Origin: Candidatus Wildermuthbacteria bacterium RIFCSPHIGHO2_01_FULL_49_22b | GTDB lineage: Bacteria; Patescibacteriota; Minisyncoccia; Minisyncoccales; UBA10102 | Direction: 5' to 3' | Length of the DNA stretch: 48,342 nucleotides | Assembly (NCBI GenBank): GCA_001823165.1 | Contig: MHTT01000008.1 | Span: 1-48,342 of the forward strand | Shown: one piece after another, positions 6,047 through 47,999 of the stretch | How positions within the stretch are numbered: position 1 is the stretch's first letter | Layout of the letters: each line of letters opens with the position of its first letter | Made by a program: the position numbers and the translations under genes | The notes under the pieces: generated by a model | Seen by the model: only the letters and a program-made list of their open reading frames with translations | What the model was told of the DNA's origin: nothing | Databases searched by the model: none

Positions 6047-6952
6047 ATGGCTGACAGTATAACTAAAGAAAGTCCTCGATACCCAACACTACTCGGTGAA
6101 CTTAGGGACGCGCCAAAGCAGCTGTATTATAGGGGAAATTGGGACGGGATTTTTTCCGTCGAAGGCGGATCCGCCTCTGGCGGAGAAAAATGCCTGGCGG
6201 TTGTAGGCACGCGGAGAATGACCAGCTATGGAAAGCGCATGACCGAGCAGATCGTGGGTGAGGTTGCTGCGGCCGGGGTGACCGTTGTTTCTGGTTTTAT
6301 GTACGGTATTGATGCTGAAGCCCACAAAGCAGCTTTGAGAGCCGGCGGCAAAACCATTGCCGTAATGCCCTGCGGAATTGACGTTGTGCACCCAGAATAT
6401 CAGGCGGACTTATATCAAGAGATTTTAGATACGGGCGGCTTAGTGGTTTCAGAATACGAAGGCACGCATCCTGCTTTGTATTGGACGTTTCCACGCCGAA
6501 ATCGCATTGTAGCAGGCCTTTCAAAGGCAACGCTGGTAGTGGAGGCCGGTGAAGACAGCGGAGCATTGATTACCGCAGACCTTGCTAAAAAATACGGCAG
6601 AAAACTCTTTGCCGTGCCAAATCCTTTAACGAGCGCGGTTTCGCAAGGAGTAACGCGGTTGCTAAAAGAGGGTGCAACGATTGCAAGCAGCGCAGACGAT
6701 ATTTTGAAGTATTTTGGGTTTCGTACGCGGAGTAGGGTCAGACCCTACTCGCAAGTAGGGTCTGACCCTACTCCGCAGATTGCAGGCGAACTTGAGCAAA
6801 AGATTATGCAGGTGCTTTTCAAGGAATCAATGCAGATTGACGCGCTTGCCAGAAAACTTAAGATACCGGCAGCGCAGCTGGGAGCCGCAATTTCCATGTT
6901 GCAGTTGGAAGGATGCATAACAGAAGAACAGGGCAAATTATATGTTGTTTAA
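6047..6952 (+). CDS. dprA: DNA processing protein DprA
   Basis: LAVVGTRRMTSYGKRMT, VVSGFMYGIDAEAHKAAL, FPRRNRIVAGLS and a C-terminal winged-helix-like tail. The ORF is open from TTG 6032 but ATG 6047 is the more likely start. Confidence 0.9.
   Translation: MADSITKESPRYPTLLGELRDAPKQLYYRGNWDGIFSVEGGSASGGEKCLAVVGTRRMTSYGKRMTEQIVGEVAAAGVTVVSGFMYGIDAEAHKAALRAGGKTIAVMPCGIDVVHPEYQADLYQEILDTGGLVVSEYEGTHPALYWTFPRRNRIVAGLSKATLVVEAGEDSGALITADLAKKYGRKLFAVPNPLTSAVSQGVTRLLKEGATIASSADDILKYFGFRTRSRVRPYSQVGSDPTPQIAGELEQKIMQVLFKESMQIDALARKLKIPAAQLGAAISMLQLEGCITEEQGKLYVV
6727..6776. repeat. Family B palindromic doublet translated in frame within dprA
   Basis: gcggaGTAGGGTCaGACCCTACtcgcaaGTAGGGTCtGACCCTACtccgc. 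It is two 8-bp-arm hairpin units and the whole 50-mer is nearly self-complementary. It encodes [17 protein letters not shown] in the linker between the Rossmann and winged-helix domains. Confidence 0.85.
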
Positions 6953-18700: not shown

Positions 18701-18997
18701 CTGGGAGGGAAAGCGCAGTTTGGAGGACAGCGGTTCGGGGAAATGGAGGTGTGGGCGCTGGAAGGATACGGGGCCTCTCACATCCTCCAGGAAATGCTTA
18801 CCATCAAGTCAGACGATGTTCCGGGAAGGGCAGCCACGTATGAAAGCATCCTGCGGGGACAGCCCATTCAAACCCCCAACCTGCCTGCCTCCTTTTCGCT
18901 TTTACTTGCTGAATTGAGGTCGCTTGGCCTTAACATTGAAGTAAAGGAGACGCAACGGGCGGAAAGAAAACAAGAAGACGAAAGAGAAAAATCCTAA
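15764..18997 (+). CDS. rpoB: DNA-directed RNA polymerase subunit beta
   Basis: Full-length conserved RpoB (FMDNENPLAELEHKRRVSATGPGGL, NMQRQAVPL, GRHGNKGVIS, GGQRFGEMEVWALEGYGA). The ORF is open from TTG 15746 and ATG 15764 is preferred. Confidence 0.97.
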   Translation: MPVPQPSFKNFGKSGVHFPLPYLLQVQQDSWSQFWRGDFKELLQEISPIYDHTKKEFELWFVDFKLGEPNYATDLEAKENDDSFEAPLRVKVRLVNLKTKEQKEQEIFLTDFPLMTERGTFIINGVERVAISQLIRSPGAFFTGQEAKVTRKLFGAKIIPNRGAWLEFETENSGFIGVRIDRKRKAPATTLLKAFGLETEEAIQSAFSDVDKGSVSYIAETLKKDTAKGQGEALMEIYRRLRPGDYVTPDTAKELIGNMFFNFERYDLSRVGRWKTLQRLPALKNPKSKTEEEVSLKDRVLKLEDIIEVLREIIRLNNAPGAVPDQIDHLGNRRVRTFAEFLQNRLRVGFMRMERIVKDRMSTLDASMLTPAQLVNPRPVMAMVKEFFTSSQITQFMDNENPLAELEHKRRVSATGPGGLTRERAGFEVRDVQPSHYGRICPIQTPEGPNIGLVGHMASYARINSYGFLETPYFEVRKEKVTERIKYLNAFEEEQEVIAHAGIPLDAKGAIIPDKVEARVRGEAGMAAKKDVTYIDVGPEQSISVATALIPFLRNDDANRALMGSNMQRQAVPLLRAESPLVGTGLEEKVAKDSGLAVVAQEDGVVKEVDARHITVKPATEKSHTYELKNFVRTNQYTSFHQRPIVDVGQKIKKGQVIADGGAIDQGRLALGTNLLVAFISWRGGNYEDAIILSERLVKDDRYTSIHIEDFVADIRETKLGPELTTSDIPNVGEEKLKDLDEEGVVRAGAEVGPNDILVGKISPKGEADLTSEERLLRAIFGEKARDVKDSSLLMPHGKRGRVVSVKVFERVQGHKLEPGVIKRIHVEVAELRKVQPGDKLAGRHGNKGVISFVLPEEDMPFMEDGTPVDIVLNPLGVASRMNIGQILETHLGWAAKKQGYFALTPGLAGANEKDIKAELKAAGLPEDGKVTLFDGRDGTSFPQKITVGMIYMMKLIHMVEDKIHMRSIGPYSLITQQPLGGKAQFGGQRFGEMEVWALEGYGASHILQEMLTIKSDDVPGRAATYESILRGQPIQTPNLPASFSLLLAELRSLGLNIEVKETQRAERKQEDEREKS

Positions 18998-19085
18998 GAA
19001 ATCCTAAATCCGATTTAGAGAAATCCTAGATTTAGTAAGAAATCCTAAATCCGATTTAGTAAGAAATCCTAAATCCGATTTAGAA
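18988..19085 (+). repeat. Tandem array of family C REP-like palindromes in the rpoB-rpoC spacer
   Basis: cctaaatccgatttag at 19003-19018, 19044-19059 and 19068-19083, with a degenerate copy at 19024-19035, at ~24-nt period (aagaaatcctaaatccgatttagt). All are in the CCG orientation. The rpoB TAA stop (18995-18997) lies in a partial unit aaatcctaag. Confidence 0.85.
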
Positions 19086-19125
19086 ATTTTAGAAATTAGA
19101 ATTTAGAGTTTTAGTTTTAGCATAC

Positions 19126-22100
19126 ATGAGGGTAACCGATTTAGAATCCATTCGAATAAAGCTCGCCTCCCCGGACAACGTTTTGGCGTGGTCTCACGGG
19201 GAGGTTACGAAGCCCGAAACCATCAACTACCGCACCCAGCGCGCGGAAAAGGAAGGTTTGTTTGACGAGCGCATCTTTGGTCCGGAAAAGGACTATGAGT
19301 GCTATTGCGGCAAGTACCGCAAGATACGCTACAAGGGCGTGGTGTGCGACCGGTGCCAAGTGGAGGTGACCAAATCCTCGGTGCGCCGCGAGCGCATGGG
19401 CCACATCAAGCTGGCCTCGCCCTGCTCGCACATCTGGTTTCTGCGGGGGGTGCCCTCGCGCATGGGCCTTGTTTTGGATATTCCTTCTGGCGCCTTGGAG
19501 CGCGTCATCTACTTTGCCTCGTATATCATCACCAAGGTGAACGAGGAGGCAAAAGCCAAGGCCGCAGACGAGATTGAGGCGGAATTCAAGCAGAAATTCA
19601 AGAACAAGGGAGAAGAAGAAAAGCAGCAGCTCAAGGGAGCGCGCGACCGGGCCAGAGAAGAGCTCAAGCTCCTCCAGCCCTTGAAAATCCTTTCTGAAGC
19701 AGAGTATCAGAACCTTTCTTTAAAGTACGGCCAGGCCTTTGAGGCGGGAACCGGAGCTGGAACCCTAAGAAAAATATTTCAAGAAGTGGATTTAAAGAAG
19801 CTTCTCAATCAGGTAAAAAAAGACCTGGAAAAGGCGAGTTTGGTGACGAAACGAAAACTCTTGGTCAGGATGCGACTGCTGCAGGGAATGCTGGAGTCCT
19901 CTATTCGCCCCGAATGGATGTTTTTCACCCACTTGCCTGTTCTTCCTCCCGACCTGCGTCCCATGGTGCAGCTGGACGGGGGAAGGTACGCTTCCTCTGA
20001 CTTAAACGACCTGTACCGCAGGGTGATTAACCGCAACAACCGCTTAAAGTATCTGCTGGAAATTGAGGCCCCGGACGTGATTGTGCGCAACGAGAAGCGC
20101 ATGCTGCAGGAAGCCGTGGACGCCCTGATTGACAACTCTATGAGAAAAGGACAACTCACGTCAGCTACCACGGGAGGAAGGCGCCTGTTAAAGTCCCTAG
20201 CGGACATGCTCAAGGGAAAGCAGGGACGGTTCCGCCAGAACCTGCTGGGAAAGCGTGTGGACTACTCGGGGAGGTCGGTCATTGTGGTGGGTCCCACCAT
20301 GAGTTTGAAGAACGTGGGACTGCCAAAGCGCATGGCCCTGGAGCTGTTTAAGCCCTTTGTGATTCAAAAAATCCTTGAACGGGAGTTTGCCTTCAATGTC
20401 CGGGGAGCAAATCGGCTTATTGAACAGGAAACCAACGATGTATGGGCGATTTTGGAAGAGGTTGTCGCAGAAAGAATGGTGCTCTTGAACCGCGCGCCGA
20501 CTCTTCACCGCTTGGGCATCCAGGCCTTTTACCCGCAGCTCGTGGAAGGGGAGGCCATCCGCCTGCATCCTCTGGTGTGCTCCGCCTTCAACGCGGACTT
20601 TGACGGAGACCAGATGGCCGTCCATGTGCCTCTGTCCAAAGAGGCCCAGGAAGAGGCCAGAAACCTGATGCTGTCGGCAAACAATCTGTTAAAGCCCGCC
20701 ACGGGAATCCCGGTGGCCGGTCCCCGCCAGGATATGGTGCTCGGCTGCTATTACTTGACCGGCGCAGACAAAAAACCGCAGGAACAAAAGAAGAGTTTTT
20801 CGTCTCCGCAGGAGGTCCTGCTTGCCATGGAAGCCGGGGCTGTCGGGTTGCGGGACGCCATACGGGTGCGTATGCCAAAGACCTGGGGAGGGGACGGTAT
20901 TTCTCTTGCGGAAACCACGCCAGGCCGCCTCATTTTCAACGAGTCCTTGCCTTCCGGGTTCCCGTTTGTCAACGAACAGATTACCGCAAAAAGAATGGAA
21001 CGCCTGGTGGCGGATATTATTAAGCATTATCCTGCCGAGGAGGCCCCCGGCATGTTAGACAAAATCAAGGAGCTGGGATTTGAATATGCGACCAAGTCCG
21101 GAATCACTTGGGGCATGGATGATCTGACGGTCCCGGAAGAAAAGAAAGAGCTGCTGGGGCAAGCTGCGCAAGAGATTGAAGTCATTGATTCCCATTTTGC
21201 AAGGGGATTGCTTTCCAAGGAGGAGAGGTCGGCTAAGGTCATTGAAATCTGGCAGCGGGTGAAGTCCGCGGTGGAAAAACTCGTGCCGAAATCCCTGCCT
21301 GAAGGCGGTTCGGTCTTTTCCATTATTGACTCCGGGGCAAGGGGTTCTTGGTCCCAGCCCGTGCAGATGGCGGGCATGAAGGGCTTGGTGATTAACCCGG
21401 CAGGCCGCATTATTGAGCTGCCCGTCAAGAGTTCTTTCAAGGAAGGGTTTGACGTACTGGAGTACTTCATTTCCACGCACGGGGCAAGAAAGGGAACCGC
21501 GGACACCGCCTTGAGAACGTCCACGGCAGGGTATCTTACCCGCCGTTTGATTGACGTTGCCCATGACGTGCTGGTAACCTTGCATGACTGCAAAGACACG
21601 GCGGGCATCGTCATTACCAAGGCCGTGGCCCAAGAGCTGGGCCAGAACATTGCTTTAAAGCTTGCTGGCAGGATTTCCCTGCAGGACCTGAAAGGAATTG
21701 TGAAGAAAGGAGGGTACATTGATTGGGACAAGGCCCAGGCAATTGGAGAAGACGAGAAGGTAAAGGAGGTGTGGGTACGCTCGCCTTTGTCGTGCCGCGC
21801 GGTGCGGGGAGTGTGCCAGCTGTGCTACGGATGGGATATGGGCAGGAACAGGGAGATTGAGCTGGGAGCGGCTGTTGGCATCGTGGCGGCCCAATCCATT
21901 GGAGAGCCGGGAACGCAGCTTACCATGAGAACATTCCACACGGGAGGGGTTGCTGGAGGAGGCGACATTACCCAGGGACTTCCCCGCGTAGAGGAAATCT
22001 TTGAAGGAAGGGTTCCGAGCGGCAAGGCCGTCTTATCAGAGCTTGCAGGGAAAGTGGTTGAGATAACTCCAGAGGGCGCGGTGAAGATACAAGCAACAAT

Positions 22101-22716
22101 TGACAATTTACAATTGACAATTGACAAGAAGAATAGTCGTCAAAAGTCAAAAGTCAAGAGTCAAGAGTCAATCGTGGAATACCAGATTCCCGCAAAGCGG
22201 GCTTTGTGGGTAAAGCTTGGAGACCAGGTCGTGAAAGGGCAGCAACTGTGCGAAGGGCACCCGGACCTTCAAGAGATATTTTCCCTCACCGGAAAGGACG
22301 GCGCGGCGTCTTATATCGTCAGAGAAGTGCAAAGTATTTACACTTCCCAGGGCGCTTCCATCCACGACAAGCATATTGAGACCATAGCGCGCCAGATGTT
22401 TTCCCGCATCAGAATCAAGGATGCGGGAGACGCCGCCTTCACGGAAGGGGAAGTGGTAGAAAGGGCCGTATTTCTGGAAGAAAACGCCAAGGTCAAGAAG
22501 CTTTCAAAGAGAGGAGCCGTGGGCTCCCAGCTTCTCTTGGGCATTTCCAAAATTGCCCTCACCACGGACAGCTTTCTGTCCTCGGCCTCGTTCCAGGAAA
22601 CCTCCCGCGTTTTGATTAAGGCCTCTCTGGAAGGCAAGGAAGACCGCCTGCGGGGTCTGAAAGAAAACGTGATTATCGGGAAGCTTATTCCTGCGGGAAC
22701 CGGGTTCAAGAAATAA
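19126..22716 (+). CDS. rpoC: DNA-directed RNA polymerase subunit beta-prime
   Basis: Zn-finger CYCGKYRKIRYKGVVCDRCQVEV, catalytic NADFDGDQMAVHVPLS, trigger-loop region GEPGTQLTMRTFHTGG and C-terminal ASFQETSRVL. Confidence 0.97.
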   Translation: MRVTDLESIRIKLASPDNVLAWSHGEVTKPETINYRTQRAEKEGLFDERIFGPEKDYECYCGKYRKIRYKGVVCDRCQVEVTKSSVRRERMGHIKLASPCSHIWFLRGVPSRMGLVLDIPSGALERVIYFASYIITKVNEEAKAKAADEIEAEFKQKFKNKGEEEKQQLKGARDRAREELKLLQPLKILSEAEYQNLSLKYGQAFEAGTGAGTLRKIFQEVDLKKLLNQVKKDLEKASLVTKRKLLVRMRLLQGMLESSIRPEWMFFTHLPVLPPDLRPMVQLDGGRYASSDLNDLYRRVINRNNRLKYLLEIEAPDVIVRNEKRMLQEAVDALIDNSMRKGQLTSATTGGRRLLKSLADMLKGKQGRFRQNLLGKRVDYSGRSVIVVGPTMSLKNVGLPKRMALELFKPFVIQKILEREFAFNVRGANRLIEQETNDVWAILEEVVAERMVLLNRAPTLHRLGIQAFYPQLVEGEAIRLHPLVCSAFNADFDGDQMAVHVPLSKEAQEEARNLMLSANNLLKPATGIPVAGPRQDMVLGCYYLTGADKKPQEQKKSFSSPQEVLLAMEAGAVGLRDAIRVRMPKTWGGDGISLAETTPGRLIFNESLPSGFPFVNEQITAKRMERLVADIIKHYPAEEAPGMLDKIKELGFEYATKSGITWGMDDLTVPEEKKELLGQAAQEIEVIDSHFARGLLSKEERSAKVIEIWQRVKSAVEKLVPKSLPEGGSVFSIIDSGARGSWSQPVQMAGMKGLVINPAGRIIELPVKSSFKEGFDVLEYFISTHGARKGTADTALRTSTAGYLTRRLIDVAHDVLVTLHDCKDTAGIVITKAVAQELGQNIALKLAGRISLQDLKGIVKKGGYIDWDKAQAIGEDEKVKEVWVRSPLSCRAVRGVCQLCYGWDMGRNREIELGAAVGIVAAQSIGEPGTQLTMRTFHTGGVAGGGDITQGLPRVEEIFEGRVPSGKAVLSELAGKVVEITPEGAVKIQATIDNLQLTIDKKNSRQKSKVKSQESIVEYQIPAKRALWVKLGDQVVKGQQLCEGHPDLQEIFSLTGKDGAASYIVREVQSIYTSQGASIHDKHIETIARQMFSRIRIKDAGDAAFTEGEVVERAVFLEENAKVKKLSKRGAVGSQLLLGISKIALTTDSFLSSASFQETSRVLIKASLEGKEDRLRGLKENVIIGKLIPAGTGFKK
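22097..22172 (+). repeat. Family A heptamer-array hairpin element translated within rpoC
   Basis: caa TTGACAA TTTACAA TTGACAA TTGACAA gaagaat agtcgtc AAAAGTC AAAAGTC AAGAGTC AAGAGTC aat, encoding TIDNLQLTIDKKNSRQKSKVKSQES. Homologous to 36963-37036 and to the reverse complement of 34589-34662. Confidence 0.85.
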
Positions 22717-28146: not shown

Positions 28147-28707
28147 ATGCGCTTGATGAGACAAAATTCTCTTCCGTACAAAATTCTTAGCCACCTAGAA
28201 GATATCGGAGAAGATATGCTTGATTTTATCGTGAACCCTCCAAAAACCATGTATCAAGCTGTGAAAAGATTGGATCGGGAACAGCGCAAGCAAAGGATAC
28301 AATATGCATTGTTTCGATTATGGAAACGAGGGTTAATAGAGAGTACTATGCGCAATAATAAAAAATATATTGCGATTAGTAAAAAAGGAAGAATTCAAAT
28401 TGCCCGATATGTTATAGAAAAAAAGAAAAAGATGCCTTGGGACGGAAAATGGCGCATTGTGATTTTTGATATCCGGGAGGCAGCAAGAAGAGATAGAAAT
28501 TTTTTTCGGCGACAGCTTCAATGGTTTAGTTTTATAGAATTGCAAAAAAGTGTATGGGTTATTCCTTGGGATGTGACGAAGGAATTCCGCGATTTTCTTT
28601 CTGCATGCAAAGCTGAATTAACAGGCGATATGCGTTTTCTTGTTGTGGAGAAGATTGATACTGATTACGATTTAAAAAAACGTTTTGGTTTGGTTGAAAC
28701 AAAATAA
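28147..28707 (+). CDS. PaaX-family-like regulator (wHTH plus Cas2-like ferredoxin-fold segment)
   Basis: 186 aa. WDGKWRIVIFDIREAARRDRNFFRRQLQWFSFIELQKSVWVIPWD matches the PaaX/Cas2-type motif (W.G.W..v.fdIpe..R..R...r..L...gF..lq.SvWv.P). The N-terminal part looks wHTH-like. Confidence 0.6.
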   Translation: MRLMRQNSLPYKILSHLEDIGEDMLDFIVNPPKTMYQAVKRLDREQRKQRIQYALFRLWKRGLIESTMRNNKKYIAISKKGRIQIARYVIEKKKKMPWDGKWRIVIFDIREAARRDRNFFRRQLQWFSFIELQKSVWVIPWDVTKEFRDFLSACKAELTGDMRFLVVEKIDTDYDLKKRFGLVETK

Positions 28708-34382: not shown

Positions 34383-35788
34383 TAAGATAGCGTACCCCGC
34401 TTTTGAGATTTGGTCAATCCGAGGACTTGTTCCCTGAGCTTTCGATGGTAAGAAATGGCAAAGCGGTGCGCTTCGTCCCTGATATGGAGAAACAGATTCT
34501 CAAGGGGCCTCGGCAGGTCTCTCAAAAGCACTGGTCTTGATTTGCCGGGAAAGAACAGCTCGTTTTGTTTTTTTGCCAGTGCCACCATGATTGACTTTTG
34601 ACCTTTGACTTTTGACGATTGACTTTTTTTGCTGTCAATTGTCAATTGTGAATTGCCAATTGTTAGCTCCCGCAGCGCAGAGAGCGCTGCGGTGAGCTGC
34701 CCCTTTCCTCCGTCAATGACCATGAGCTGGGGATAGGGCCATTCGGGGTGCCGGAGACGCCTTGAGAGAAGTTCTTCCATCATAGCATAATCATTTGATT
34801 TACCAGATATGCGAATCTTGTACTTTCTATAGGATTCCTTGAGAGGGGCCCCTTTAAGAAAGGTAACCTGGGAACCTGTTGCTTGTTTCCCTTGGATGTT
34901 GGAGATGTCATAGGCCTCCATGCGGGAGATTCGTTTTCTTGTTTCAAAGAGCTTCTGGAGTTCCTTTTCTATGAGGTTCCAGTTGGTGGAGGGCGCGGTC
35001 TCGCGGGAAAGGAGCCGCGCATGAGAAACAATGCGCTCTAAAGCGAGAAATTGATCTCTCAATCCTGCTGCTTTTTCAAAACCCTGATTCTTTGCGGCCT
35101 CGTTCATTTCTTTTTTCAGTTGTCTGAAAACCGAGGTTCTCTTTCCTTTGAGGACGGCGGCAAGTTTGCGCAGGTTCTTTTTGTATGTTTTCTCATCTGG
35201 GTCGGGTCCCGGGCAGAGATTGAGCTGGCACCAGGAGCAGGGAAGGGAGCCGTGCTTTTTTGCCGTGTAATAGGGGAATACCCTCCGAAGCAATCTCAAT
35301 ACCCGCCTGATTGCCTTTCCTTCCGTGAAAGGGCCAATATAGTTTGTATCTTGTATTTTGTATCTTGTATTTTGTATTTTTTTCTCCTTTTTCATACCAG
35401 ATACCAGATACGAGCTACAAGATACAAGGCGGGGCTGATGCGTCAAAAAGATTCTCGGAAGTTTATCTTTTGTTATTCCAACAAAAAAATACCCCTTGTC
35501 GTCTTTCCACATGACGTTGTATTTGGGCTGCAGCTTCTTTATGAGCTGCGACTCCAGCAACAAGGCATCAATTTCAGATTGAGTTTCAAGATATCCTACC
35601 CTGGTTACTTGGGATGTGAAAAGATTGTCCCGGTAGCTGGGCTGGGCAAAGTGGATTCTGACCCGGTCTTTGATATTCCCCGCCTTTCCTATATACAGCA
35701 CCGCTTTGGGAGAAGCCAAAGCATACACCCCGGGTGCTTTTGGAAGGGTTGAGAGTTTTGATTTGGGAACATACCGAAACTTTTCCAT
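34382..35788 (-). CDS. uvrC: Excinuclease ABC subunit C, short form (no C-terminal HhH2 domain), carrying two in-frame repeat insertions
   Basis: GIY-YIG (GVYALASPKAVLYIGKAGNIKDRV), UVR domain (EMNEAAKNQGFEKAAGLRDQFLALERI) and endonuclease V-like domain ending IRDEAHRFAISYHRKLR. ATG 35788 fits the canonical N-terminus, but the frame stays open to TTG 36091. Confidence 0.9.
   Translation of the reverse strand: MEKFRYVPKSKLSTLPKAPGVYALASPKAVLYIGKAGNIKDRVRIHFAQPSYRDNLFTSQVTRVGYLETQSEIDALLLESQLIKKLQPKYNVMWKDDKGYFFVGITKDKLPRIFLTHQPRLVSCSSYLVSGMKKEKKIQNTRYKIQDTNYIGPFTEGKAIRRVLRLLRRVFPYYTAKKHGSLPCSWCQLNLCPGPDPDEKTYKKNLRKLAAVLKGKRTSVFRQLKKEMNEAAKNQGFEKAAGLRDQFLALERIVSHARLLSRETAPSTNWNLIEKELQKLFETRKRISRMEAYDISNIQGKQATGSQVTFLKGAPLKESYRKYKIRISGKSNDYAMMEELLSRRLRHPEWPYPQLMVIDGGKGQLTAALSALRELTIGNSQLTIDSKKSQSSKVKGQKSIMVALAKKQNELFFPGKSRPVLLRDLPRPLENLFLHIRDEAHRFAISYHRKLREQVLGLTKSQKRGTLS
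34589..34662 (-). repeat. Family A heptamer-array hairpin element translated within uvrC
   Basis: The coding strand reads caa TTGGCAA TTCACAA TTGACAA TTGACAG caaaaaa agtcaat cGTCAAA aGTCAAA gGTCAAA aGTCAAT cat, encoding TIGNSQLTIDSKKSQSSKVKGQKS. Confidence 0.85.
35344..35428. repeat. Family G heptamer-array hairpin element translated within uvrC
   Basis: The plus strand reads TTGTATC TTGTATT TTGTATC TTGTATT TTGTATT tttttctcctttttc ATACCAG ATACCAG ATACGAG CTACAAG ATACAAG. ttgtat and atacaa are reverse complements. It encodes the extra segment ...LVSCSSYLVSGMKKEKKIQNTRYKIQDTNY.... Confidence 0.8.
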
Positions 35789-36229: not shown

Positions 36230-39157
36230 ATGGCACAGGATTTCATTAAAATCAGGGGAGCACGGGTTCACAACCTCAAGAACATTGACGTTGATATCCC
36301 CAAGGGCAAGCTTGTGGTGATTACCGGGCTTTCCGGGTCAGGGAAAAGCTCTCTTGCCTTTGATACTCTGTATGCTGAAGGACAGAGAAGGTACGTTGAG
36401 AGTTTGTCCGCATACGCGCGGCAATTCCTGGGCGTCATGCAAAAGCCCGATGTGGATTCCATTGAGGGCATTAGTCCTGCCATTGCCATTGACCAGAGAA
36501 AGGGAGCTCACAACCCTCGTTCTACCGTTGGGACCATTACGGAGATATATGACTATCTCCGTCTTTTGTTTGCAAGGATAGGAGTTCCGCACTGTCCCAA
36601 CTGCGGCAGGGAAGTCAAGCGCCAGTCGGTTTCCTCCATTGCAGACCAGGTGCAGAAACTTCCCGCCAAAGACGAGATTGCCATTCTTGGTCCTGTAATC
36701 AGGGAGAAAAAAGGGGAGCACCGGGGAGTTTTAGAAGAAATCCAGCGTTCCGGGTTTGTGAGGGCTCGCATTGACGGCATTGTGGAGCGCGTTGAAGAGG
36801 CCCTGGAAAAGGAGTTGGACCGCAAAAAGAAGCATTCCATTGAAGTGCTCGTGGACCGGCTAACCATAGACAAGGATCTGGACCGCCCCCGCCTCATCGA
36901 TTCTTTAGAGACCGCCTTAAAGCTTGGGAAAGGGCTGGTGATTGTGCGGGCACAGTCACCAACAATTGACAATTCACAATTAACAATTAGCAAGAAGAAT
37001 CGTCGTCAAAAGTCAACAGTCAATAGTCAAAAGTCAGGAGAAGACCTGGTCTTCAGCGAGCGCTTTGCCTGCGAGCAATGCAGTATTTCCCTGCCAGAGA
37101 TTGAGCCGAGAATGTTTTCTTTCAACTCTCCCTTTGGGGCGTGTCCTGCGTGCCAGGGATTAGGAGAAAAGCTGGAGGTTGATCCCAAACTGGTGATTCC
37201 CAACCCCCGGCTTTCCCTTGCCGAGGGCGCCATTTTCCCCTGGGCGCACGCTTCCCATAAGATAGGACGCCAGGGATTCTTTTGGTGGAAACTGGAAGAC
37301 CTGGCGAAAGAAAGGAAGTTTTCTTTGAATACTCCAGTAGAGGAGCTTTCTCCTAAAGTCATTAGCCTGGTCTTGCAAGGAGATAGAGGGTTTGCCGCCC
37401 GCAGAAGCGGGCGAGCCTCACCCGCCTCTGAAGAGGCGAGGTGGGAAGGAGTGATTCCCTGGCTGGAACGAAGATACCATGAGACCGACTCTGAATACGC
37501 CAGGGAAGAGATTGAGCAGTATATGATAGAGCGCTTGTGCGAAATGTGCCAGGGAAAGAGGTTGAAACCCGAGGTGGTGGCGGTAACCGTGGGGGCAAAG
37601 TCCATTCACGGGGTCGTAAACCTGCAGCTCAACCGCGTCAAAGAGTTTTTTGGCAAACTCTTCTTGAAAGAGCATGAGAAAAAGATAGCAAGCCCCATTG
37701 TAAAAGAGATTGTGAATCGCCTTCAGTTTTTAATTGATGTGGGCTTGGAGTATCTCACCCTGGCGAGAAAAGCCGCGACCCTGTCAGGAGGAGAAGAACA
37801 GAGAATACGGCTCGCCACCCAGATTGGCTCAAAGCTTACTGGGGTCTTGTACATATTGGACGAGCCCTCTGTCGGTTTGCATGCCAGAGACCAGCATCGC
37901 CTCATTGCGACCTTGCAGCAATTGCGCTCTTTGGGCAATACCATTGTAGTAGTAGAGCATGACCCCCAAACCATACGGTCAGCTGACTGGGTGGTGGATA
38001 TTGGCCCTGGAGCAGGAAAGCACGGGGGCCGTGTCACTTTTACCGGAACGCCAAAACAGCTGCTCAAGTCGCGCACACTTACCGGAGATTACCTAGCGGG
38101 GCGCAGAACTGTTCAGATAAGCAAAGTAGGGTCAGACCCTACTCGGGTGAGTAGGGTCAGACCCTACTCACAGCTGATTGTCCAGGGGGCAACGCACAAC
38201 AACTTAAAGAACATTGACGTTGCAATACCGCTGGAAAGGATGGTGTGCGTGACCGGGGTTTCAGGGTCTGGCAAAAGTTCTCTGGTCAGCGATATTGTGG
38301 CAAAAGCCCTGCTGCAGAAGTTCTACAGGGCAAAGGAAGAACCGGGAGAGCATAAGGCAATTTTAGGCACGGAGCATCTTAACAAGGTGGCGCTGGTGGA
38401 CCAGTCGCCCATTGGCAGAACTCCGCGTTCCAACCCCGCAACCTACACAGGGTCCTTTTCTGTCATACGGGATTTGTTTGCTTTATGCAAAGAGGCCAGG
38501 GTGCGGGGCTACAAGCCGGGAAGATTTTCTTTTAATGTAAAGGGAGGAAGATGCGAGTCCTGCGAGGGCCAGGGGCTAAAAAAGATTGAGATGTACTTTT
38601 TACCGGACGTGTATGTGGAGTGCGAGGAATGCCAGGGACAGCGATACATGAAAGAGGTCCTGGAGGTGGAATACCGAGGCAAAAACATTGCCCAGGTTCT
38701 GGCAATGACCGTGGAGGAAGCCCTGGCGTTTTTCAGAAACATTCCCGCCCTGACAGCGAAGTTGAAGACCTTAAACGACGTGGGACTCTCGTATGTGGAG
38801 CTGGGACAGCCCGCCCCCTCCCTTTCTGGGGGAGAGGCCCAGCGAGTAAAGCTGGCAACCGAGCTTGCAAAGAAAGCAACAGGAAAGACCCTGTACATTC
38901 TAGACGAGCCAACCACGGGTCTTCATTTTGACGACGTGAAAAAACTGCTTCAGGTGTTGGGGGAACTGACGGACAAGGGAAACACGGTATTGATTATTGA
39001 GCACAATCTTGATGTGGTGCGCAATTCGGACTGGATTATTGACCTGGGACCAGAGGGAGGAGAAAAAGGGGGGAAATTGGTCGCAGAGGGAACCCCAAGA
39101 GATGTTGCCAAAATAAAAAAGAGCTATACGGGGCAGTACTTGCGTAAGTTCAGCTGA
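36230..39157 (+). CDS. uvrA: Excinuclease ABC subunit A, carrying two in-frame repeat insertions
   Basis: Two ABC modules ([51 protein letters not shown]), zinc modules (CPNCG, CEQC...[12 protein letters not shown]...CEECQGQRY), 975 aa. Confidence 0.97.
36963..37036 (+). repeat. Family A heptamer-array hairpin element translated within uvrA
   Basis: caa TTGACAA TTCACAA TTAACAA TTAGCAA gaagaat cgtcgtc AAAAGTC AACAGTC AATAGTC AAAAGTC a, encoding [25 protein letters not shown]. Confidence 0.85.
38125..38168. repeat. Family B palindromic doublet translated within uvrA
   Basis: aGTAGGGTCaGACCCTACtcgggtgaGTAGGGTCaGACCCTACt, encoding [17 protein letters not shown]. These are the same two peptide readings as in dprA but in swapped order. 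Confidence 0.85.
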
Positions 39158-39816: not shown

Positions 39817-41586
<1,770 letters not shown>

Positions 41587-42281: not shown

Positions 42282-43187
42282 GTGAATATCTACTCGCACG
42301 CTGAAGCAAACACAAGAAAAACATGGTTGTACCTTCTGGGGTTTTTTGTCTTTGTGGTTGCGATTGGCTGGTTCATGAGTTATGCCTTAGGCAGTCAGGT
42401 CATCTTGTGGATTGCGGTTGGTTTGAGCATTGTCATGAGCTTTGGTTCTTTTTGGTATTCAGACAAACTGGTGCTGTCTTTATCGCATGCAAAACCCATT
42501 GAGAAGAAAGATGCCCCCGAATTGTACCGTATGGTGGAGAATTTGAGCATCACGGCAGGACTGCCAACGCCGCGAGTATTCATTATCCAGGACGCGCAGC
42601 CCAACGCTTTTGCAACAGGCAGGGACGCAAAGCACGCCGTGGTGGCAGTAACCACGGGTTTGTTCAGTCGTTTGGAGCGCACCGAGCTGGAAGGAGTGCT
42701 TTCCCACGAACTCTCCCACATTGGCAACAAGGATATGCTGGTTTCCACGGTTGTGGTGGTTTTGGTTGGCGTGGTGGTTTTGCTTGCAGATCTTTTCTTT
42801 CGCCTTGCCTATTTTGGAGGCATGGGAGGGCGAAGCGATAGAGGAGGAGGGCAGGCAAGGATCGCGCTCATTCTGATTGCGCTCGCCTTCCTTATCCTGG
42901 CCCCCATGCTGGCCCAGGCAATGAAGTTTGCCATTTCCCGGAAACGCGAGTTTCTGGCCGACGCTTCCGGAGCCCTTCTCACAAGGTATCCTGAAGGCCT
43001 GGCCTTGGCCCTAGAAAAGATTTCAAGCGACCCGCACCAGTTAAAATCCGCCAACGACGCCACCTCCCATCTATATATTGCAAATCCGTTTAGGGGCAAA
43101 GAGCAGAAGAGCTGGATTCACAAACTATTCATGTCGCATCCGCCGGTAGAGGAGCGCGTCAAGGCATTGCGCGGTATGCGCCCCTAA
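42282..43187 (+). CDS. htpX: M48-family zinc metalloprotease HtpX
   Basis: GTG start, HELSHI zinc motif, four TM helices, EFLADASGALLT, SHPPVEERV. Confidence 0.93.
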   Translation: MNIYSHAEANTRKTWLYLLGFFVFVVAIGWFMSYALGSQVILWIAVGLSIVMSFGSFWYSDKLVLSLSHAKPIEKKDAPELYRMVENLSITAGLPTPRVFIIQDAQPNAFATGRDAKHAVVAVTTGLFSRLERTELEGVLSHELSHIGNKDMLVSTVVVVLVGVVVLLADLFFRLAYFGGMGGRSDRGGGQARIALILIALAFLILAPMLAQAMKFAISRKREFLADASGALLTRYPEGLALALEKISSDPHQLKSANDATSHLYIANPFRGKEQKSWIHKLFMSHPPVEERVKALRGMRP

Positions 43188-43271
43188 ATTTTCAATTATC
43201 AATTTCCAATTTTTAATCAAACCCCAATGACCAAATTTTTAAACAGTCTGATAATTGAAGCATTGAAAATT
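43185..43271. repeat. AT-rich TIR-bounded miniature element (family E), copy 2
   Basis: It starts at the htpX TAA (cccctaaattttcaat...) and ends ...cattgaaaatt. It shares blocks with 5967-6040. Confidence 0.7.
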
Positions 43272-43303
43272 CACTGAAGATTGAGAATTGCAAATTGAGA
43301 ATT

Positions 43304-47714: not shown

Positions 47715-47999
47715 TCCGCGGTAGCTCAGCTGGTAGAGCGGCTCGCTGTGAGTAAAGTTGCAGCTTCTTGGAGCAATCCAGGTTGAAAAACGGGGTTAAT
47801 TGCGGGAAACCTAAAGCGAAAGCCAAGGCAATCCGCAGCCAAGGGATGTAACATTTTGCCTTGCAAAATTGTACGTTCAAGGTTCAGAGACTATACGCCC
47901 CGCACCCCTTTGGGGTGATGAGATAGTCCACGCCAGTATGAAAGTATTGGGTTGCGTGTAACGAGATGGTCGTAGGTTCGAATCCTACCCGCGGAGCCA
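47715..47999 (+). tRNA. tRNA-Asn(GUU) interrupted in the anticodon loop by a group I intron. Exons are 47715-47749 and 47959-47999 (CCA encoded).
   Basis: The spliced product is UCCGCGG UA GCUC AGCUGGUA GAGC G GCUCG CUGU|UAA CGAGA UGGUC GUAGG UUCGAAU CCUAC CCGCGGA G CCA. U1-A72, G73 and overall similarity to bacterial tRNA-Asn support the call. One 27-43 mismatch. Confidence 0.85.
47750..47958 (+). ncRNA. Group I self-splicing intron (209 nt, tRNA-intron/IC3-like, no ORF)
   Basis: The canonical core elements are all present: P aattgcgggaaa (~47798), Q aatccgcagc (47830-47839), R gttcagagacta (47882-47893) and S agatagtcc (47921-47929). P1 pairs exon gcugU (47745-47749) with IGS Gcagc (47760-47764), giving a U-G wobble at the 5' splice site. 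The intron ends in G (47958). Confidence 0.88.

Follow-up and report, generated by a model that had tools for sequence, protein, structure and literature searches.

The heptamer-array element in uvrA and its copies

The stretch of 48,342 nt at positions 1–48,342 of contig MHTT01000008.1 from Candidatus Wildermuthbacteria bacterium RIFCSPHIGHO2_01_FULL_49_22b (GCA_001823165.1), the whole of which is referred to here as the window, contains the gene for UvrA, and within the coding sequence of this gene lies a repeat element of 75 nt (25 codons) that has relatives in rpoC and uvrC (Table 1). The host open reading frame (ORF) matches the Pfam families UvrA_inter, UvrA_DNA-bind, and ABC_tran and aligns over its full length with the solved UvrA structures 2R6F, 3UWX, and 9GXK. 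The element corresponds to UvrA residues T245 to S269 (36962–37036, with codon 245 beginning at 36962), its left boundary is uncertain by ∼3 nt (CAA/CCA), and the protein flank upstream of it is ...LVIVRAQSP. An earlier reading made from the letters of this DNA (the sequence-only reading) had given 36963–37036 as caa TTGACAA TTCACAA TTAACAA TTAGCAA gaagaat cgtcgtc AAAAGTC AACAGTC AATAGTC AAAAGTC, which matches the sequence exactly. Four TTGACAA-like units are followed by the spacer GAAGAATCGTCGTC and four AAAAGTC-like units, and both arms are period-7 arrays of 4.7 and 4.6 copies with 84–88% matches (Tandem Repeats Finder). With at least three units in each array, the element falls within the head-to-tail 7-nt repeats; it is not a single direct intergenic array, since two differing and mutually complementary arrays stand around a spacer within a gene. 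Directly 5′ of the element, at 36936–36961, a 12-nt inverted repeat (TGGTGATTGTGC / GCACAGTCACCA; 92% complementary, 2-nt loop) encodes VIVRAQSP, where orthologues differ (SSRK), and this repeat may be the remnant of an earlier insert.

Table 1. Window positions of the host gene, the uvrA element with its parts, and the two related copies
Feature	Position	Strand	Evidence or remarks
Host gene uvrA, 975 aa	36230–39157	+	ORF list, Pfam, solved-structure match
uvrA element	36960–37036	+	Sequence, copy alignment, empty site in L096, pLDDT
Left arm, TTGACAA TTCACAA TTAACAA TTAGCAA	36966–36993	+	Unit 2 is the stop-removing change
Spacer GAAGAATCGTCGTC	36994–37007	+	Purine-rich, hairpin loop, encodes KNRR
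Right arm, AAAAGTC AACAGTC AATAGTC AAAAGTC A	37008–37036	+	GTCAA cores complementary to left-arm TTGAC
rpoC copy, residues ∼991–1016, TIDNLQLTIDKKNSRQKSKVKSQES	22096–22172	+	Best preserved; sequence, alignment, fold, absence from the closest RpoC relatives
uvrC copy, LTIGNSQLTIDSKKSQSSKVKGQKS	34590–34666	-	Sequence, alignment, fold; deletion variant in L002

Three copies with the two-arm architecture are found on searching both strands of the window, a number that is a minimum for the genome, of which 48 kb is covered. In uvrA, rpoC, and uvrC alike, the copy is oriented the same way with respect to its host gene and is read in the same phase with respect to its spacer. The uvrA copy had been described as sharing the architecture, orientation, and frame of the rpoC copy, and this is confirmed, with the qualification that the shared frame is the weaker evidence and the phase relative to the spacer the informative part; a heptamer array crosses all three frames every 21 nt, so that any frame gives the same 7-residue periodic peptide.

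At the nucleotide level, the rpoC and uvrA copies are identical at 67 of 78 positions. Their spacers (GAAGAATAGTCGTC in rpoC, GAAGAATCGTCGTC in uvrA) match at 13 of 14 positions, and a variant unit, AATyGTC, adjoins the spacer in the rpoC, uvrA, and uvrC copies alike. A pattern that covers all three copies has no match in 100 dinucleotide shuffles of the window, and patterns for single arms match the window 31 times (5.6 expected) and 20 times (8.8 expected). Identical codons are used by the rpoC and uvrA copies at 18 of their 19 shared residues, where 8.05 would be expected from the codon usage of the window, and none of 100,000 simulations reached 18. Similarly, when the two peptides are back-translated at random, 50 nucleotides are identical on average and 61 at most, and the period-7 self-matches (48–50 of 71) lie above a null with a mean of 27 and a maximum of 44. 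The similarity on which the sequence-only reading had founded a repeat family thus exceeds that expected of low-complexity, K/Q/S-rich coding sequence in its codons, its nucleotides, and its period-7 matches, and the rpoC and uvrA copies are, to judge from these comparisons, related by copying and not by convergent composition.

Host loops, reading frame, and variation

Most of 120 aligned UvrA relatives have a minimal loop at the position of the insert (e.g., MVQVSSRKGDQLF), and the clade in which the window UvrA is nested (P0003 and P0007–P0014; 78–83% identity) mostly has a minimal loop of 13 residues; the closest proteins are labelled Patescibacteria, Wildermuthbacteria, and Paceibacterota, among others. 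The empty site of L096, ...AGG AAA / GGA GAT CAG..., delimits the insert in uvrA. Geobacillus UvrA (2R6F/3UWX) aligns with residues 4–239 and 272–972 of the query, and ∼32 query residues face 6 in the interval. The insert occupies the tip of a β-hairpin where the UvrB-binding domain ends, just 10 residues ahead of the second CxxC of zinc module 1. In an AlphaFold2 model of the protein, with a mean predicted local distance difference test (pLDDT) score of 78.8, values below 50 fall at exactly residues 245–269, which form a coil between strands 236–242 and 271–276. The proposal of an in-frame family copy in a UvrA loop just before a zinc module is therefore upheld by DNA-level homology, insert-free orthologues, the gap against 2R6F, and disorder in the model; the loop position is, on the model, permissive, and translation of the element is inferred from the continuity of the ORF and the purging of stops. 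The rpoC copy is similarly absent from the closest RpoC relatives (75–79% identity), which read VKIKGKDIETKAKEEVMEYQIP, and the site in uvrC is nearly empty in L097, so far as sequence comparison can tell a sign that the insertion state of family copies is lineage-specific.

A perfect (ACAATTG)n array in this phase reads ACA ATT GAC AAT TGA and ends in a stop. In each of the three window copies, the unit that would bear the stop reads TTTACAA or TTCACAA, and TTyACAA stands at that unit also in L077 and in the in-gene copies found elsewhere, while the left arm of L078 is more degraded and equally stop-free. In the rpoC copy, the sole left-arm substitution is the stop-removing TTTACAA. The substitutions in the uvrA copy had been taken as decay of an older insertion, which does not hold for unit 2, since the change from TTGACAA to TTCACAA removes an in-frame TGA; decay could account for the other five departures from the consensus units. 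By a count of units on the three-copy alignment, changes that were not required number ∼5 in uvrA, ∼5 in uvrC, and ∼2 in rpoC, which would fit an older or less constrained copy, and because arrays can be re-homogenized by slippage the count is not a clock.

Between L077 and L078, identity at codon positions 1, 2, and 3 is 73, 90, and 77% within the element and 87, 94, and 62% in the rest of uvrA, a pattern that points to an element free of protein-type constraint between these two sequences. Such divergence bears on the possibility that a K/Q/S-rich disordered linker has been selected as a protein module in UvrA, RpoC, and UvrC, for example for binding to nucleic acids or partners, with the DNA repeat as a by-product. 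A module would suit a peptide that is hydrophilic and basic, three hosts that are all nucleic-acid enzymes, and the observation of only that orientation which encodes hydrophilic residues, and it is nevertheless very improbable: the near identity of synonymous positions between copies largely refutes it, the codon positions diverge without protein-type constraint, the insert is disordered in the model, and close orthologues manage without it. Between genes, moreover, the same DNA is found with its units pristine and every frame closed by stops. An exhaustive phmmer search of 1.8 billion representatives with the 31-residue peptide of the rpoC copy (the element and a few flanking residues) gave no match, a further point against a module that is uninformative on distribution because the query is short and of low complexity.

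The DNA comes from an uncultured groundwater bacterium, and the uvrA locus was recovered by independent assembly in at least four further cases, among them ERZ4903072 and ERZ27254767 (European Nucleotide Archive), a Rifle aquifer scaffold, and Joint Genome Institute (JGI) assembly 3300025317. An assembly or sequencing artifact, that is, a chimeric or mis-assembled low-complexity stretch, might be suspected in metagenome-assembled contigs, where repeats are error-prone, and is so improbable as to be nearly negligible, as the uvrA copy is identical in all four with its reading frame intact. Over 22 kb each, these assemblies show 3–16 single nucleotide polymorphisms (SNPs), and the sole insertion or deletion is the loss of 28 nt from the uvrC copy of L002. 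This loss comprises exactly four right-arm units (window 34590–34617), and frameshifts uvrC so that the product has 412 residues vs. 468 and lacks the RDEAHRFAI motif; slippage may have produced it as a genuine allele, or the assembler may have introduced it. Elsewhere in uvrC, four SNPs within 28 nt (34858–34885) are common to L001, L002, and L004 and are found neither in L003 nor in the window; the cluster shows no evident repeat or hairpin and may be a recombination tract.

In the folded element, left-arm TTGAC cores pair with right-arm GTCAA cores and the AA linkers are mismatched, which gives 5-bp helices between 2 × 2 internal loops. Folded as RNA, the rpoC copy reaches -18.4 kcal/mol (z = -3.9) and the uvrC copy a z of -3.7; the uvrA copy folds well on its antisense strand (z = -6.0), since its G-to-A changes yield G:U pairs on that strand. 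Weaker hairpins in genes than between genes were considered and rejected, as the difference (-0.289 vs. -0.326 kcal/mol per nt) is not significant (p = 0.32). A promoter or terminator role is likewise not persuasive, with one weak sigma-70-like match (TTCACA-16-AAGAAT) in the uvrA element and no terminator-like site.

These folds raise the possibility of a functional cis-element, either a hairpin that modulates transcription, translation, or mRNA decay or a contingency or mutator switch that works by 7-nt slippage. Hairpin potential is kept in rpoC and uvrC (z ∼-3.8) and in uvrA antisense, in-gene hairpins are not significantly weaker than intergenic ones, the sigma-70-like match lies within the uvrA element, two of the three host genes serve nucleotide-excision repair, and the four-unit deletion truncates UvrC in one population sample. 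A regulatory or switching function is all the same quite unlikely, given that close relatives do not conserve the element at the orthologous sites, that on/off switching in the essential rpoC would be lethal, that the sense-strand hairpin is gone from uvrA, and that the four other assemblies show no variation in the uvrA copy; switching, furthermore, is indicated by a single variant in a short-read assembly. No Rfam 15 family matches at the element, the window matches at the gathering score being a group I intron and two tRNAs.

The UvrA loop itself is subject to turnover. P0031 and P0043, a sister pair from a distant clade, carry an element of the same family at the same UvrA codon junction, and the junctions in L077 read CCA / ACAATTGACAATTTACAATTG...GTCAAATGTCAAATGTCAAATG / TCT GAA GAC. 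In L097 the loop consists of ∼11 units of AAATCAC, which is the unit of a hairpin arm in the groES-groEL spacer of the window, and in P0045 and P0058 it reads NTKYKIQNT, resembling family B of uvrC. Many orthologues have SQKSKVKSQKF at the loop in their protein sequences, which would be the translation of a (GTCAAAA)n array, and L076 has what appears to be a decayed right arm only. Further variable sites lie near UvrA residues 384, 477, and 632 in the alignment of 120 relatives. Similarly, two loops of uvrC hold different inserts in the window, in L076, and in L097, and from such alignments each genome appears to have its own families, with the same permissive loops reused repeatedly.

Other inserts of the window lie in the same two repair genes. 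A second, unrelated heptamer-array hairpin is in frame in uvrC at 35343–35425 (- strand), with the structure (CTTGTAT-like)x5 – GAAAAAGGAGAAAAAA – (ATACAAG/ATACAAA)x5; it folds at -26.8 kcal/mol and encodes ...SCSSYLVSGMKKEKKIQNTRYKIQDTNY, and relatives have different inserts there. In uvrA, a second in-frame insert at 37394–37445 (residues ∼384–403) is a GC-rich double stem-loop (GCCGCCCGC-AGAA-GCGGGCGAGC and CTCACCCGCCTC-TGAA-GAGGCGAGGTGGG) in a region that folds at -47.5 kcal/mol, with pLDDT below 50 at residues 388–402 and variation at the site in 35 of 120 orthologues.

Distribution and comparable repeats

In a scan of the genomes of 185,579 species, the bipartite motif occurs at 71 loci, which span Patescibacteria, Bacteroides/Parabacteroides/Prevotella, cyanobacteria, Planctomycetes, Chloroflexi, Acidobacteriota, Clostridia, and others and include cultured isolates, and a stricter pattern of the candidate phyla radiation (CPR) type finds 17 loci in JGI metagenomes. 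Long ORFs read through 28 of 92 unique copies (∼30%), and the confirmed host proteins elsewhere are mutually unrelated, namely MnmA, a LepA-like GTPase, LeuRS, SecA, a class-I aminoacyl-tRNA synthetase, a histidine kinase, and DnaE (two copies). The arms of non-CPR copies are mostly perfect complements (TTGACAA and TTGTCAA). In cyanobacterial copies the right arm is (CAGTCAA)n, which is the STRR3 heptamer (unit CAACAGT). Viruses were considered as carriers and set aside, with only one IMG/VR contig matching the pattern. In the literature searched, no published report of such elements in CPR, or of these repeat strings, was found.

Several of these loci have features of their own. The DnaE of a planctomycete (L005, Gemmataceae) has two in-frame, perfectly palindromic copies (RIDNYQLTIDNCQLKEN...CQLSIVNCQC). 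In Bacteroides (L008, L055, L064; L016, L017, L029, L036, L052), heptamer arms flank the conserved core CTATGCAGnnTGAnnGCGCAGCC, and one Bacteroides copy recurs in three species, apparently at an identical position within one gene. The copies at L056 (95–161) and L057 (- strand, ∼6153–6214) fall within the leader at the N terminus of type IV pilin-like genes, with the GFTLIELL prepilin motif directly after them, a position at which an extra hydrophilic peptide should be harmless.

Such a spread of heptamer-based sequences could in principle reflect arrays grown in place, in which local slippage of heptamers, together with snap-back or template switching that makes the inverted arm, generates the structure and no mobility is involved, the similarity among copies being a mutational preference. 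Bacterial genomes are known to contain an excess of heptamer repeats, for which polymerase slippage has been put forward as an explanation (PMC4692102). Growth in place would also agree with the many unrelated heptamer families in the window that have the same two-arm architecture, with spacers that differ among copies in other genomes, with uvrA-site orthologues that have a direct array only (∼11 AAATCAC units in L097, SQKSKVKSQKF in many), and with the whole-unit deletion seen in the uvrC of L002. It is unlikely, however, in view of the non-repetitive spacer and the adjacent variant unit that the rpoC and uvrA copies have in common in addition to their overall identity, and of the recurrence of this composite element across related bacteria in no fewer than 10 unrelated genes. 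The arms, moreover, are not simple reverse complements (TTGACAA vs. TTGACTT), so that a single snap-back duplication does not yield the structure.

Among the other heptamer families of the window, intergenic hairpins with arms of different unit sequences are located at 39839–39930 and 43187–43303. The groES-groEL spacer hairpin has the form (ACAAAyC)n...(TTTGGAA)n and folds at -18.8 kcal/mol, and a hairpin between M48 peptidase and Zn-ribbon genes has the form (AATTxxC)n – ∼60 nt – (GAGAATT)n and folds at -24.5 kcal/mol. The rpoB-rpoC spacer at 18983–19107, just upstream of rpoC, is a dense array with periods of 19–24 nt and the unit GATTTAGTAAGAAATCCTAAATCC, each unit with an internal palindrome (AAATCC/GGATTT-like).

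The heptanucleotide repeats of Calothrix PCC 7601 are presumably those known as STRR. Three tandem heptanucleotide repeats have been reported in that cyanobacterium (PMC4692102), and TAACTGA arrays, which differ from CAATTGA at 2 of 7 positions, have been described by MacGregor (2015; PMC4679880). Like the published heptamer arrays of cyanobacteria, Beggiatoaceae, and Bacteroidetes, the element has 2–6 copies of an A/T-rich unit, one orientation with stops in all frames, a puzzling cross-phylum spread, and an occasional position within an ORF, including one ORF that is RNA polymerase beta-prime-like. Those arrays are direct repeats that lie mostly between genes, often shortly before a start codon, and the element differs from them in being bipartite and inverted and in its location in core genes. 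The small dispersed repeats (SDR) of Nostoc (Elhai et al. 2008) are reportedly very small, putatively mobile elements that are tied to tandem heptamer arrays and in some cases lie in genes; they are said to have a 21–27 nt hairpin core within one homogeneous array, and the two arrays of the element are, by comparison, unlike one another and mutually complementary.

The closest likeness in function is to the Rickettsia palindromic elements (RPE), short dispersed palindromic repeats that occur in frame in many unrelated housekeeping genes and are translated at fold-compatible sites (Ogata et al. 2000, summarized in the MITE review PMC10969869). Both are dispersed palindromes without an associated transposase that lie in frame in unrelated genes at sites compatible with the fold. 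RPE, however, are ∼100–150 bp long with a family consensus, have no tandem 7-nt units, and reside in an alphaproteobacterial endosymbiont, whereas the element has 75 nt, heptamer-array arms, a variable spacer, and a patescibacterial host; the likeness is functional, a relationship in sequence is not to be expected, and membership of the RPE family is not claimed. Similarly, MITEs and REP/BIME sequences are small, multi-copy, of non-coding origin, and capable of forming hairpins through inverted arms, with many intergenic copies (PMC3733652, PMC3184786, PMC10969869). The element has terminal inverted repeats as MITEs do, in the form of imperfect arms with TTGAC/GTCAA cores and mismatched linkers, and differs from them in that no target-site duplication or parent insertion sequence was found with it, in its tandem-array arms of variable unit number, and in the ∼30% of copies that are intragenic. 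REP sequences are 20–40 nt long and extragenic, and the 75-nt intragenic element lacks their conserved GTAG/CGTC head, CGTC being present within the spacer only; unlike REPs associated with RAYT (REP-associated tyrosine transposase), it is not accompanied in the window by a repeat-flanked Y1 gene. Low-complexity hydrophilic surface inserts in conserved Plasmodium enzymes, including RNA polymerase, are said to have been attributed by Pizzi and Frontali 2001 to A/T-rich slippage. These too are lineage-specific hydrophilic disordered loops at surface positions, but they are found in a eukaryote, do not represent copies of a single dispersed DNA element, and lack a hairpin architecture.

A probable small hairpin repeat and its consequences

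The 75–78 nt segment is probably a copy of a small non-autonomous hairpin repeat, RPE- or MITE-like, that is tolerated as a disordered loop, with the mobility and the neutrality of the element both inferred. On this explanation, the family would have multiplied within this Patescibacteria genome to reach at least three copies in 48 kb, and copies in coding DNA would have survived only where they fell in a surface loop, had a frame-keeping length, and had the left-arm TGA mutated (TTGACAA → TTyACAA). The uvrA copy would be transcribed and translated as a 25-residue hydrophilic disordered loop that is tolerated and not functional. Point substitutions would then alter the arrays, as would replication slippage by whole 7-nt units, and such slippage would make the arrays a frameshift hazard. 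Movement might depend on a hairpin- or single-strand-dependent route (a Y1/RAYT-type transposase) or on recombination or template-switch copy-and-paste between copies.

Several observations weigh against a mobile hairpin repeat. No transposase, target-site duplication, or autonomous parent was found for the element in the 48-kb window and the fetched loci. The spacer varies from ∼4 to 45 nt among copies in other genomes, which is unusual for a simple cut-or-copy-and-paste element, and on its sense strand the uvrA copy folds no more stably than shuffled sequence does (z = -0.08). As for the 28-nt deletion, MEGAHIT produced the assembly that carries it, and the variant could be an artifact of that process. 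The UvrA loop, finally, holds unrelated heptamer-derived inserts across lineages as well as the same family in a distant clade (P0031 and P0043), and random insertion followed by selection explains this repeated use only partly.

In the search for a mobilizer, no direct repeat was seen at the rpoC, uvrA, or uvrC junctions or at the empty site of L096, and the window contains no Y1 gene. In ∼730 kb of fetched loci, no arm pair was seen to flank a gene; as regards larger composite or autonomous versions, the search there for solo arms and for arm pairs around large inserts was made uninformative by perfectly palindromic copies, which match both strands. The closest-clade relative L097 (GCA_027624865.1) has at 1238–2070 a Y1 (IS200/RAYT-like) transposase gene (PF01797, 29.7 bits), whose best NCBIfam match is the REP-associated tyrosine transposase, below cut-off. 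Its N-terminal HUH part (HHIYNRG) lies upstream in another frame, and it is flanked on both sides by GGGCTAAAAC-NN-GTTTTAGCCC hairpins in a REPtron-like arrangement. This system was rejected as a mobilizer of the element, since the flanking hairpin differs from the element and both gene and hairpin are absent from the window. The window ORF at 28147–28707 (+ strand, 186 aa) occupies the position of the L097 Y1 gene and was likewise rejected as a mobilizer, being PaaX/Cas2-like: it matches the PaaX central (Cas2-like) domain at 69.8 bits (PF20803) and Cas2 weakly. The window contains no CRISPR array. The group I intron of the window (47740–47950, + strand) is a full-length Rfam match of 92.5 bits downstream of a sigma-70 gene; ARAGORN finds no tRNA at it, and the intron may extend past the window.

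A more far-reaching possibility, which is speculative and rather unlikely, is that hairpins armed with heptamer arrays form a widespread unnamed class of self-propagating elements in Patescibacteria, Bacteroidales, Cyanobacteria, Planctomycetes, and others. Such elements would replace one another at the same loops of CPR core proteins by targeting existing hairpins or DNA structures, and their 7-nt slippage would act as a reversible frameshift mutator or repair switch, for example in uvrC.

The element ties the cross-phylum puzzle of heptamer arrays to a defined hairpin architecture, and the unit-wise deletion that truncates UvrC suggests that the arrays are frameshift hot spots in repair genes. 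If the segment in uvrA is indeed a copy of a small hairpin repeat, the in-frame colonization of essential genes would extend beyond Rickettsia, and RNA polymerase, UvrABC, SecA, and the aminoacyl-tRNA synthetases of reduced CPR/Patescibacteria genomes would have been shaped by such elements. Their insertion would account for many of the lineage-specific low-complexity loops of CPR proteins that complicate alignment, phylogeny, and structure prediction, and would provide a concrete DNA-level origin for new disordered protein segments.

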